Origin: Promethearchaeota archaeon
GTDB lineage: Archaea > Asgardarchaeota > Lokiarchaeia > Sigyniarchaeales > SOKP01
Direction: 5' to 3'
Assembly (NCBI GenBank): GCA_048939995.1
Contig: JBHLOY010000004.1
Span: 160,001 to 224,000 of the forward strand
Length of the DNA: 64,000 nt
Shown: positions 52,665 through 58,547 of the stretch, one piece after another
Layout of the letters: every line of letters starts with the position of its first letter
Numbering within the stretch: the first letter of the stretch is position 1
Notes under the pieces: generated by a model
The model's database searches: none
The model's input: the letters and a program-made list of their open reading frames with translations, nothing else
What the model was told of the DNA's origin: nothing
Made by a program: the position numbers and the translations under genes

Positions 52665-53981
52665 TCATAATGAATCAGTTGGATTTACTTTTCTATTTTT
52701 AATAGTTCTCTTATTTATAATCAGACCGATAGTAATGATTAAAACTACAAAAACCAATATATATATACTTGGAATTTCTCCATCTGTTACTGATGTTACA
52801 ATTCCCCCATCTCTAATAAGCCAATTAAAATTATTAATAATAGCTTGTTTTGCATCCTTGGCTGCACTACTATATTTGGAGGAACCTGCATCAAAAGTTA
52901 CATTAAATCGCAAGGAAAGTTGCGACCAACCTATTAATAATTGATCATAATTCGAGGTCGATAGTGCAACCCCATAGAACATATAATCCATATTTTTCAC
53001 ATTTGAGACGTTCCAATTACCGAGAGGCTGATCAAACGAAGGAGCAAAACAGAACATGAATCTCATTGTATTTACGCTCGGGACATCCCAGTTGCCCAGG
53101 GGTTGATTGAATGATGAAGCAAAATAGAATATATAATCCATATTTGTCACATTTGAGACATTCCAGTCACCTATGGGTTGGTTGAATGAGGATGAGTCGG
53201 TAAACATATAACTCATGTCATTCACACTCGAGACATCCCAGTCACCAAGGTATTGATTGAATGAAGAAGCTCCATGGAACATGAATCTCATAGTTGTCAC
53301 TCTGGAGACATTCCAGTTATCGATGGATATATTGAATGAAGAAGCTCCATAGAACATAAAATCCATATTAGTGACCTTGGAGGTGTCCCAATTATTCATA
53401 TTACCATTGCTACTTAAACTGGGGCAATTCCTAAAAGCAGAATGTAAACTTGTTGTTCCCGTTAAATTTATATCATCAGTTGCAGTAAGTGCTAAATTAG
53501 AACATCCTGAAAAATATTTTTCTGAATTTCCTAATTGCAAGCAACCCCATTGTTGAATTTGGAGTATCTTTAGCTTATCACCCCCGAAACCAAATCTCCA
53601 TCCAATAATAGTTCCCATGATGCTTATAGTATATACTCCTTCGGAATTATAGGTGTGTATAGCAGTAGGTTGATCCCAATTTATGATTGTATCATTGTTC
53701 ATATCCCCCCATTCTACTGTGAAATTATATGTTCCACTCGATTCTAATGGTAGGCATACTTGATTGCTACTGCTAGAACCCTCACTTATCTTTGTTGTAT
53801 CCCAGACAGAGATAAACTCTTTCGGGTTTGATGCGACAGGATTATGTGAATCTAAGTCGGTGGTAGCTCTTTTTAGCTCATAAAAGGGATACTCATGAGT
53901 CGAAATACTCAAGGATATCGATAGTAAGACTATAGATACTACACATAGTTTTGTTAATTTAAATTTTTTCAAACTAATCAT
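52665..53981 (-). CDS. BspA-like/DUF285 repeat surface protein with PKD-like domain and C-terminal membrane anchor
   Basis: signal peptide; V.WGD..H.Y..G.YTI; 25-aa W.VS.V..M..MF...SFNQ repeats; C-terminal TM plus basic tail. Confidence 0.88.
   Translation of the reverse strand: MISLKKFKLTKLCVVSIVLLSISLSISTHEYPFYELKRATTDLDSHNPVASNPKEFISVWDTTKISEGSSSSNQVCLPLESSGTYNFTVEWGDMNNDTIINWDQPTAIHTYNSEGVYTISIMGTIIGWRFGFGGDKLKILQIQQWGCLQLGNSEKYFSGCSNLALTATDDINLTGTTSLHSAFRNCPSLSSNGNMNNWDTSKVTNMDFMFYGASSFNISIDNWNVSRVTTMRFMFHGASSFNQYLGDWDVSSVNDMSYMFTDSSSFNQPIGDWNVSNVTNMDYIFYFASSFNQPLGNWDVPSVNTMRFMFCFAPSFDQPLGNWNVSNVKNMDYMFYGVALSTSNYDQLLIGWSQLSLRFNVTFDAGSSKYSSAAKDAKQAIINNFNWLIRDGGIVTSVTDGEIPSIYILVFVVLIITIGLIINKRTIKNRKVNPTDSL
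52975..53395 (-). repeat. 75-bp coding tandem repeats (about 6 imperfect units)
   Basis: e.g. atataatccatattt recurs 150 bp apart and gaacatgaatctcat 225 bp apart. Confidence 0.8.
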
Positions 53982-55687: not shown

Positions 55688-56050
55688 ATGAATGAAAAAA
55701 TAGAAAATAGATTAATAGCTTATTGTGGTATTGATTGTGGAAGGTGCAACATTTATCTTGCTCCCAATAATCCTAAGATTGCTAAAGACTTAATAAGAAC
55801 TTTTGAAGGTGCGTGGGATAATGTTAAACCAGAAGATTTTTCGTGTAGTACTTGTAGAGGTCCAATTGATGAATGTTGGAGTTCAGAGTGTTGGATTCGA
55901 GATTGTTGTTCTAAGATAAAAAAACTAAATTATTGTTATGAATGTGATGAATTTCCTTGTGCTAATCTAGAGAAATGGGCTTTAAAAAGCAAAGGTTATA
56001 AAAAAGCACTAAACAGACTCAGGAAAATGAAAGGCCTTGATTTTAAATAA
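55688..56050 (+). CDS. DUF3795 Cys-rich protein
   Basis: IAYCGIDC..C, C.TCR, C.IR.C, CYEC.EFPC. Confidence 0.8.
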   Translation: MNEKIENRLIAYCGIDCGRCNIYLAPNNPKIAKDLIRTFEGAWDNVKPEDFSCSTCRGPIDECWSSECWIRDCCSKIKKLNYCYECDEFPCANLEKWALKSKGYKKALNRLRKMKGLDFK

Positions 56051-56738
56051 AAAACCCTTTGATAATTAAAATTCCCCCTAAATTAAATAGAATTAAGGCA
56101 AGACTCTCAGTTAACATTTCTTCAGAAATGCCACCAATTAAATTTGATGCGAGTCCAATAACGACTATAATTATTCCTACAAAAAACCATTGTAATCTTT
56201 TTTTAGTTCCTCCTTCAACCTTTTTAGTCATCATTGCATATTTGCATATAACATAAATCGCTAAACTAATCCTTAGAAGATTTACCAAAGAGAACCATAT
56301 TAAAGCAGCACCAGTAGTCAAAGTATCAACCATACCCTGTTCATACAAACTTAGGTTCAAAGATGGTCTCCATATAAAGAATCCAAAACTCATTAGGATA
56401 AATAAAATCATCATTGTTCCGAAATATTTAATACTCATAGCTACTTTTTGGGATTTTTCTAAGATAAAAACTGTCATTACCAAGGATATAGGAATGAAAT
56501 TGAAAAAGATTTGAGCTGGAATCCTGATTGAAATAATGAGAGACTCACATCCACCACAAAATATCAAATGATAAATTAGATATAACAAAAATCCAAAAGA
56601 AGCAGAGTAGAAAAATAGCGCAAACCATCTATTTAGCCAATTTGTTCGATTTAAGCGTAGTTCAATAAACCCTCCTATAAATGTAATTATAACTGTTATC
56701 CCTACAATAATCATTTCTAAAATATAGAAACCAATCAT
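56043..56738 (-). CDS. stand-alone 7TM membrane protein (HisKA_7TM-like)
   Basis: seven hydrophobic segments; LNRWFALFF after TM1; no cytoplasmic output domain. Confidence 0.6.
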   Translation of the reverse strand: MIGFYILEMIIVGITVIITFIGGFIELRLNRTNWLNRWFALFFYSASFGFLLYLIYHLIFCGGCESLIISIRIPAQIFFNFIPISLVMTVFILEKSQKVAMSIKYFGTMMILFILMSFGFFIWRPSLNLSLYEQGMVDTLTTGAALIWFSLVNLLRISLAIYVICKYAMMTKKVEGGTKKRLQWFFVGIIIVVIGLASNLIGGISEEMLTESLALILFNLGGILIIKGFFI

Positions 56739-56912
56739 CAGTATTTTACCCTTTTAATATTAAAACATAATAATGACTTATAATAATTTTAAATTTACCT
56801 TTCTTGATTAAAAAAACAATATCTTTAAGTTTTAAATAATAAAAAATTAGATATATCAAATATAAAATATTTTCTATTCATTTATTCAATACTCCAATTT
56901 TGATGTTTACAT

Positions 56913-58547
56913 ATGCCCAAATGCTTTGTGATATCTCCCATCCGTGTAGATAAATATGATCAAGTTTTTAATCAAATTATTAAACCAGCGATGGAAAATT
57001 GTGGAATAGAAACATTCTGTGAAACGAAATTAACCAATAAAGTATTTGATTTAATACCCACCTATGATCTATGTATAATAATTCATTCAAAAGATCATCC
57101 GTTAATATATTATCAAACTGCTATCGCTAAATGTGCTGGCAAGCCTCTTATCTTCTTGAAGGCAAAAGGAGAGTCCCTCCCATTCCACCTCAATAATGAA
57201 CATAATGTAAATTACGATCTAAAGGATTTAACTCAATTAAATGTTGAGGATGTCATTAATGATATAATTAATAGAGTAAAAGAAATTGAATTAAATGATT
57301 GGGAGGCCCTCCAACCATTTAACTTCGAAAAGATCCAAAAAATTAAAGATTCAATTCAAAAAGATAATTCAAAAAAATGTTATATAATTCAACCTATTGG
57401 CCGGGAAGGATCAGATACGTGGGAACACATTGATAGCGTATTTAATTATATAATTAAACCAGGATTAAAAAAGTTCGATCTTAAACCTTATACAATTATG
57501 GACTTAAAATCTAAGGTAACATCATTCGAACCTGGATTGCTATCAGAACGAAAACTTAGATTATTATCTGAAAATAGCCTTGAAATCTTATCTGAACAAG
57601 TTTACAAAGCAATTTTGACTATGGACCTATGCATCGCAATCTTAACCTACCCAGATCCAAATGTATTCTTTGAATTAGGTATGGCACATTTTGAATCTCG
57701 ACCGGTTATTAAATTAATGGATAAGGAGACTTATAGAAACTATCCTTTTGTTCTAAGAAAGAAAAAAGATCTAATTTTATATACTTATCAATATTTATCT
57801 TTAAAAAGCGTATTTTATGATAAAACGTATACCAGTCAGATTTTAGATTACATTAAGGATTTAGAAGTCGCAGATTGGAGAGTTCAGAATTTTCGTTTTA
57901 AAGATATCGTTATTGAAAATGAATTTAACAAATATATCAAGAAAAAAATATCACAAACACATAGAGAAATAAAATTTGATAATTTAGCCGCTAAAACTGG
58001 CTTAGAACCTCAAAAGATTGAAGAATTGATTGAGAAATTGATATTAAGAGGAGAATTGGATGCAGAAATTATCAAAAATAAAATTATATTTAAACCATCT
58101 GAAGCTGCTTCAATTGAAGTTGCATCTACAATACCTCCTGGTAAAAAGATTTTAATTTTTATTAGTTATGCTACTAAAGATGCTGATTGGTTTAAGGTTC
58201 AAGAGATTGCAAGATCATTAACTACTTACCACGAAATAGAGAAAGTCTTTTATTGGCAAGAGGACATGAAAGACAACATTTATGAATATATGGATGAATA
58301 TTTAGGTAAATGTGATCTTATGCTCCTATTTTGTTCCCCTAATGCTTTAAAATCTAAACCAATAATGAAAGAATGGACAGCAGCAGATAGTATGGAAATA
58401 CCAATTATTCCTGTCTTTTTTAGCTCAGAACATATACCCCCACTTTTGAAATCAAGATTAGGCGTTAAATTTTTTCCTTTTGAGTTTGAGAAAAATGTAA
58501 GTAAAATTCATGATCTAATCATTAAAAAGTGTGAGGAAAAAACCTAA
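56913..58547 (+). CDS. multidomain protein: two nucleoside-deoxyribosyltransferase-like domains + PCI-like winged helix + TIR
   Basis: CFVISPI and CYIIQPI repeats; PNVFFELGMA; FDNLA..IEKLILRGELDAEI; IFISYA..D, SPNALKS...KEW, IIPVF. Confidence 0.8.
   Translation: MPKCFVISPIRVDKYDQVFNQIIKPAMENCGIETFCETKLTNKVFDLIPTYDLCIIIHSKDHPLIYYQTAIAKCAGKPLIFLKAKGESLPFHLNNEHNVNYDLKDLTQLNVEDVINDIINRVKEIELNDWEALQPFNFEKIQKIKDSIQKDNSKKCYIIQPIGREGSDTWEHIDSVFNYIIKPGLKKFDLKPYTIMDLKSKVTSFEPGLLSERKLRLLSENSLEILSEQVYKAILTMDLCIAILTYPDPNVFFELGMAHFESRPVIKLMDKETYRNYPFVLRKKKDLILYTYQYLSLKSVFYDKTYTSQILDYIKDLEVADWRVQNFRFKDIVIENEFNKYIKKKISQTHREIKFDNLAAKTGLEPQKIEELIEKLILRGELDAEIIKNKIIFKPSEAASIEVASTIPPGKKILIFISYATKDADWFKVQEIARSLTTYHEIEKVFYWQEDMKDNIYEYMDEYLGKCDLMLLFCSPNALKSKPIMKEWTAADSMEIPIIPVFFSSEHIPPLLKSRLGVKFFPFEFEKNVSKIHDLIIKKCEEKT

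Follow-up and report, generated by a model that had tools for sequence, protein, structure and literature searches.

The window (the whole 64,000-nucleotide stretch of DNA that was analyzed) carries a gene in which two repeats resembling nucleoside 2-deoxyribosyltransferases (NDT), a PCI-type winged helix and a C-terminal TIR domain follow one another in a single chain, and which lies beside a divergently transcribed gene for a 7TM protein (Table 1). The translated product is matched in Pfam by TIR_2 at residues 415–522 (E 1.5e-15; 58.2 bits against a cut-off of 28) and by PCI at residues 330–388 (24 bits against a cut-off of 22); Nuc_deoxyrib_tr (PF05014) gives a weak match at residues 228–273, with 14 bits, below its gathering cut-off of 28.8. 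An assembly artefact or chance fusion is ruled out by 13 full-length homologs, 12 of them at 70–81% identity and one (P0014) at ~53%, and by independently assembled contigs from other studies that span the repeat 2, winged-helix and TIR junctions; no indels are listed within the ORF, and the four-domain gene is confirmed as genuine and conserved.

Table 1. Features of the locus and further TIR genes of the same genome.
Feature	Position	Strand	Remarks
Stand-alone 7TM protein, 231 aa, HisKA_7TM-like fold	56043..56738	-	divergent from the tandem-NDT/TIR gene
Two conserved AT-rich intergenic blocks	56767-56799, 56826-56848 (region 56767..56848)		
Whole tandem-NDT/TIR gene	56913..58547	+	544 aa: NDT-like repeat 1, repeat 2, winged helix, linker, TIR
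Repeat 1 (aa 1-132), NDT/DrHyd fold	56913..57308	+	Gln68 at 57114-57116 instead of Glu
Repeat 2 (aa 153-325), NDT/DrHyd fold	57369..57887	+	Tyr157, Asp197, Glu254 (57672-57674)
PCI-type winged helix and one preceding helix (aa 328-395)	57894..58097	+	
Low-confidence linker (aa 396-409)	58098..58139	+	pLDDT <50
TIR domain, Lokiarchaeial expanded family	58140..58544	+	Glu487 at 58371-58373
Other TIR genes in this genome	C13:106701-108197, C17:476428-477660, C17:346982-348238, C3:86700-90383		

A structural model of the whole chain (pTM 0.67) has a disordered linker before the TIR domain, which is probably flexible, and a complex prediction for two copies of residues 1–400 scored 0.00, a value that speaks neither for nor against self-assembly. 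A PDB search with the single protein sequence gave no match, a weak search among proteins of 953–2720 residues found no longer fusion, and a search of viral contigs with two sequence patterns found no relatives. The four-domain architecture has no match in the protein catalogues searched, and no Asgard or Loki TIR combined with PCI or with 7TM is described in the literature searched, where subscription papers were thinly covered; as the first-pass annotation had proposed, the combination seems undescribed, and every part of it is of a known kind.

The NDT-like repeats, winged helix and TIR domain

Residues 1–135 and 150–328 are homologous to one another (BLASTP, 24%, E 2e-11), and a profile built from 80 single-domain NDT-like proteins matches both (repeat 1 at E 1e-30, repeat 2 at E 3e-28), which bears out the earlier reading of two tandem NDT-like domains. 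Each has the five-stranded Rossmann-like fold and the homology to DNPH1, MilB and NDT that define the NDT/DrHyd superfamily; by fold, repeat 1 is nearest to MilB (Z 13.0, rmsd 2.7, 126 aligned) and repeat 2 to the 2'-deoxyribosyltransferase 7o62 (Z 12.2, rmsd 3.0, 130 aligned), with TIR domains tied close behind. Against solved structures, the best match of the repeat-family profile is DNPH1/Rcl (E 7e-4), with a CMP N-glycosidase as a weak further match. The family comprises 2617 representatives at E 0.001, mostly single-domain NDT-like proteins, and the degenerate tandem head is confined to one 50% cluster out of 1.84 billion representatives.

Gln68 and Glu254 occupy the same profile column, in which 99% of the family has Glu, and each is invariant in the 14 full-length rows; they are the Gln in the degenerate motif of the first repeat (PLIYYQTA) and the catalytic-type Glu of the second (PNVFFELG), both noted from the sequence earlier. 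With Gln in place of the catalytic Glu of an active NDT/DrHyd enzyme, repeat 1 is predicted to be catalytically dead. The state of the remaining pocket was scored on 13 polar columns that at least 85% of the 157 single-domain members share, a set derived from relatives that were retrieved with this query. At least 10 of the 13 residues are kept by 156 of the 157 single-domain relatives; repeat 1, in which the BB-loop is shortened, has 4–5 left, and repeat 2, in which the BB-loop carries an insertion of ~25 residues, has 5–7 (one more if Asp197 is registered by hand). Having lost so many pocket residues, repeat 1 may be purely structural. Repeat 2 lacks the complete polar pocket of the family (strand-1 Ser, RxD, NPN, PFD, Arg) though Glu254 is present: it has lost Ser in strand 1, Arg in RxD and Asp in PFD, and its earlier designation as a second active head is not supported. 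It may still be an enzyme, since Tyr157, Asp197 and Glu254 are kept in 14 of 14 full-length rows, but enzymatic activity of repeat 2 is, on balance, doubtful.

DNPH1 and MilB both form dimers in which the neighbouring subunit completes the active site; the DNPH1 variant E104Q, which has the same Glu-to-Gln exchange as repeat 1, binds substrate without cleaving it (PMC10603095). [quoted passage not shown] When residues 1–330 are modelled alone, the pTM rises to 0.87; in the model the pair appears as one rigid unit, and this value together with the homology suggests a DNPH1-like geometry, in which the pair would be a single-chain pseudo-dimer serving mainly for binding. In a quick tree the stem branches of the repeats are long (1.54 and 1.23; median tip 0.38), and the tree is compatible with duplication as well as with fusion of two relatives as their origin; the repeats are now under purifying selection (dN/dS 0.11–0.20).

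Several related proteins share parts of this head. Two tandem NDT-like proteins with neither winged helix nor TIR (P0103, L061:2103-3080, located after a Tle1-like lipase gene, and P0222) have Glu in both copies and retain 9–13 of the 13 polar positions, so the tandem arrangement alone is not the cause of the residue loss. Intact single NDT-like proteins of 326–330 residues, with all family residues, are encoded in sister genomes (L018:2195-3175, L019:6773-7765 and L020:907-1887); the quick tree places repeat 1 beside them (support 86), and the genes in L018 and L019 adjoin an ORF assigned by eye as NAD-synthetase-like. An Atlas cluster of 427-residue bacterial proteins also resembles the repeat pair (TM 0.66).

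The winged-helix profile, compared with solved structures, ranks eIF3c (E 1.7e-5), CSN4 and Rpn3 first, and PF01399 is matched by all 14 full-length rows. In the model a single helix (residues 328–349) stands between repeat 2 and the winged helix, and the N-terminal helical-repeat half of a PCI domain is absent, so that the middle domain is, as modelled, the winged-helix half only; the PCI-like winged helix of the first-pass annotation is retained, and the PCI scaffold that was attached to it is not. The same piece stands between leucine-rich repeat (LRR) heads and TIR in LRR-WH-TIR relatives, a recurrence that marks it as a putative reusable spacer.

The C-terminal domain, which had been read as a TIR with an NADase-type Glu (KEW), is indeed one: its fold is close to the MAL TIR (Z 15.3, rmsd 3.0, 131 aligned) and to SARM1 (Z 14.7), adaptor TIRs being among the top matches and tied with SARM1, and Glu487 in helix C is invariant, together with the strand-A Ser, in all 62 TIR rows. 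The aromatic position of the WxxxE motif is Pro483, and Pro or Ala is found there in 54 of the 62 rows; every tested cyclising TIR has this aromatic (bioRxiv 10.1101/2022.05.07.491051), and its absence argues for linear ADP-ribose over a cyclic signal. The Glu alone is no guarantee of TIR activity, as TLR2 and IL-1R9/10 illustrate (bioRxiv 10.64898/2026.04.20.719644). The TIR is the most constrained domain (dN/dS 0.09–0.13), and NADase activity is fairly probable.

This TIR belongs to a Lokiarchaeial family of C-terminal TIR domains of which no description was found in the literature searched. A search at E 1e-20 detected the family in 24 of 201 genomes of the phylum, with at most 10 matches each; of these genomes, leaving aside the window's own, 20 belong to its taxonomic family. 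Members of the TIR family, at 55–67% identity to this TIR, carry LRR, Roc GTPase, WD40, TPR or 7TM heads. The same genome encodes four more TIR proteins, three with membrane heads and one with a long WD40 head. In the distant homolog P0014 (L024:1389-3008) the same head is joined to a TIR from another clade that keeps the catalytic Glu, and identity to the window protein falls to 23% in the TIR against 57–67% in the other domains; just past the 7TM gene, at the end of that contig, lies a gene ending in a Lokiarchaeial-type TIR. P0017 (L062:921-2411) and P0198 are a second NDT-like/TIR fusion, with an intact NDT-like domain, the same Lokiarchaeial TIR and a middle domain resembling that of the 326-residue single-NDT proteins; the gene upstream of P0017 encodes a member of the isochorismatase family, which includes nicotinamidases.

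Genomic setting and evolution of the locus

In the window and at most homologous loci the gene is flanked by CobA, AlkD-like and DUF3795 genes on one side and by a thiolase-ChsH2-M28 peptidase block on the other. Among the 42 genomes of the genus, 4 carry it, and the searches of other genera gave none; Hodarchaeota and Hermodarchaeota labels at NCBI on homologs of 80% identity were considered as a sign of a wider range and rejected, one such contig being from a genome of the same GTDB genus. The narrow range (one subclade of one genus) marks the protein as a late, lineage-specific shuffle that is not ancestral to the TIR or PCI proteins of eukaryotes. In close relatives the site is empty or refilled: genome G010 preserves pieces of the 7TM gene and of the TIR end, fused to each other; in G018 a remnant of the 7TM gene is accompanied by an MFS transporter; and in G244 the gene pair lies elsewhere and has lost both 5' ends and the intergenic region. 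Two natural deletions (L064:5565-7545 and L046:7591-7807) have taken out the intergenic region between the two genes and impaired both of them. At least three separate lesions and two relocations are recorded in all. A DUF285-repeat surface protein with a PKD-like part in the window (52665-53981, minus strand), missing at this position from the homologous loci read, is another variable insert.

The GC content of 0.297 (25th percentile) and the GC3 (64th percentile) are those of native DNA and rule out a recent foreign island, and dN/dS of 0.09–0.27 in every domain, measured on the closer pairs, rules out diversifying selection. Loss and movement are what an accessory or conflict gene would show; a fast-evolving defence island would not be expected at such a site or under such selection.

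The 7TM neighbour has a HisKA_7TM-like fold (TM 0.77–0.82) and belongs to a family of mostly Promethearchaeota proteins that lack Pfam assignments; it also resembles a class A GPCR cluster (TM 0.72). Neither this neighbour nor the wider TIR family figures in the first-pass annotation. The AT-rich blocks between the two genes, of which the one at 56826-56848 persists in the most distant locus, are a probable divergent promoter region. At every locus examined, at three different chromosomal sites, the 7TM gene is adjacent and faces away, and in two genomes it is co-deleted with the tandem-NDT/TIR gene. Profile-profile comparison finds a remote likeness between it and the membrane heads of 7TM-TIR fusions (HH probability 85%, E 6e-6); a direct HMM search gave no such link. 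Close 7TM homologs in genomes that lack the tandem-NDT/TIR gene are widespread (12 of 36 genomes of the genus) and the gene-adjacent copies form one clade (support 83/76), so that a functional link between the two genes is only suggestive.

Candidate mechanisms

The repeats share their fold, Glu position and two-unit body with DNPH1/Rcl, MilB, BlsM and the nucleoside 2-deoxyribosyltransferases of the DrHyd branch (PMC9503650), from which the protein differs in having both copies in one chain, one of them with Gln and both missing pocket residues, in its score against PF05014 (14 bits versus 28.8), and in the fused winged helix and TIR. With the PCI subunits of eIF3, the COP9 signalosome and the proteasome lid (PF01399) it has winged-helix sequence in common; here, however, the helical-repeat half is missing and a single copy stands as a spacer before the TIR. 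In type VIII Thoeris, too, a TIR is combined with a DrHyd-type domain (ThsB TIR and ThsI CMP-hydrolase-TPR; bioRxiv 10.64898/2025.12.03.692087), but as two genes in defence islands, with cADPR produced by the TIR and the hydrolase acting as effector, whereas the present protein is one chain with degenerate hydrolase domains, no TPR and no defence context. Other members of the Lokiarchaeial TIR family share the TIR, and the tandem degenerate NDT head is peculiar to this cluster. SARM1 and the bacterial TIR_2 NADases AbTir, BtTir and TcpB have the same fold, the Glu and the order of a regulatory head, a spacer and a TIR at the C terminus; they differ in their ARM/SAM or coiled-coil heads, in the BB-loop, in having the WxxxE aromatic, and in that the activity of the present TIR is a prediction. 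SARM1 is a nucleotide-gated TIR, and by analogy the protein would work most like a ligand-gated TIR NADase.

The reading preferred here, to which an even chance is given, is a cytosolic nucleotide-binding sensor that gates a TIR NADase and is switched by clustering; its ligand binding, clustering, NADase activity and biological trigger we infer as follows. The repeat pair, a DNPH1/MilB/NDT dimer in single-chain form with catalysis mostly abandoned, would bind a nucleotide or nucleoside; binding would alter clustering of the protein, by itself or together with further TIR proteins of its family; clustering would turn on the TIR, which would cleave NAD+ to linear ADP-ribose and not to a cyclic isomer; and the output would be signalling or growth arrest. 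The trigger might be viral, at somewhat less than an even chance, and would otherwise be metabolic or another stress.

An immune role of any kind is likewise possible but falls a little short of an even chance, and its more specific form, the first-pass proposal of an effector in which both repeat 2 and the TIR are active heads, with repeat 1 as sensor and assembly through the winged helix, is unlikely. Glu254 and Glu487 are both invariant, but 40% of repeat-2 columns are invariant and one invariant Glu therefore says little, and repeat 2 is without roughly half of the polar residues that the family conserves; the helical half of a PCI domain is absent. The PADLOC model PDLC00733 ('Effector, TIR') is matched by 80 of 80 single-domain NDT-like members and not by the full protein, for which PADLOC and NCBIfam gave no match, and the protein is, by these profiles, a member of no catalogued defence system. 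Patchy presence (4/42) with repeated lesions and relocation, the proven anti-phage pairing of a TIR with a CMP hydrolase in type VIII Thoeris, and the emergence in the same lineage of a second NDT-like/TIR fusion (P0017, P0198) would suit such an effector; yet no defence genes lie beside any locus read, nor any cognate cyclase, effector or defence-island neighbours of the Thoeris, CBASS, Pycsar or retron kinds, and the housekeeping neighbourhood, native composition and purifying selection count against the immune role as first stated.

A two-gene receptor system, in which the 7TM protein would detect an external signal and bring in the soluble protein for the TIR output, as a split form of a 7TM-TIR fusion, is compatible with the nucleotide-sensor reading and, in itself, quite unlikely. 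The constant adjacency at three sites, the co-deletion in two genomes, the HisKA_7TM-like fold and the remote likeness to 7TM-TIR heads found in the same genomes all point to it; divergent neighbours, however, share deletions physically, membrane proteins align by hydrophobicity, the single clade of adjacent copies makes the link one historical event, and many genomes carry close 7TM homologs and lack the gene. If instead the three Rossmann-like domains only bind, the protein would be a non-catalytic scaffold whose TIR acts with membrane TIR proteins in the manner of MyD88 or MAL, as the tied adaptor TIR matches, the missing WxxxE aromatic and the four other family TIRs of the genome (three membrane-bound) might suggest; the invariance of Glu487 and the strand-A Ser (62/62) and the unrelated TIR of P0014, which would break family TIR-TIR contacts yet keep the chemistry, make this decidedly improbable. 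A housekeeping nucleotide-salvage or pool-sanitising hydrolase, with repeat 2 active on a deoxynucleoside or dNMP and the remainder a regulatory tail, would accord with the housekeeping site and with a Tyr in repeat 2 where the family has Phe (register inferred), a position that in DNPH1 and MilB sets the preference for deoxyribose or ribose (PMC10603095), but the gene is absent from most of the genus and repeatedly lost and the TIR is its best conserved part, so that this explanation is extremely improbable.

A broader reading, itself unlikely as a whole, would place the protein in a Lokiarchaeial TIR network in which receptors and cytosolic sensors share an NAD-cleaving output; as a nucleotide-gated member, possibly coupled to the adjacent GPCR-fold receptor, it would be a hydrolase dimer turned ligand sensor, with a SARM1-like logic built independently. 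The protein is soluble, has 544 residues and offers three testable residues (Gln68, Glu254 and Glu487); if the reading as a sensor-gated NADase is true, it would provide a first biochemical handle on Asgard archaeal TIR signalling and a clean case of an enzyme dimer converted into a single-chain sensor.
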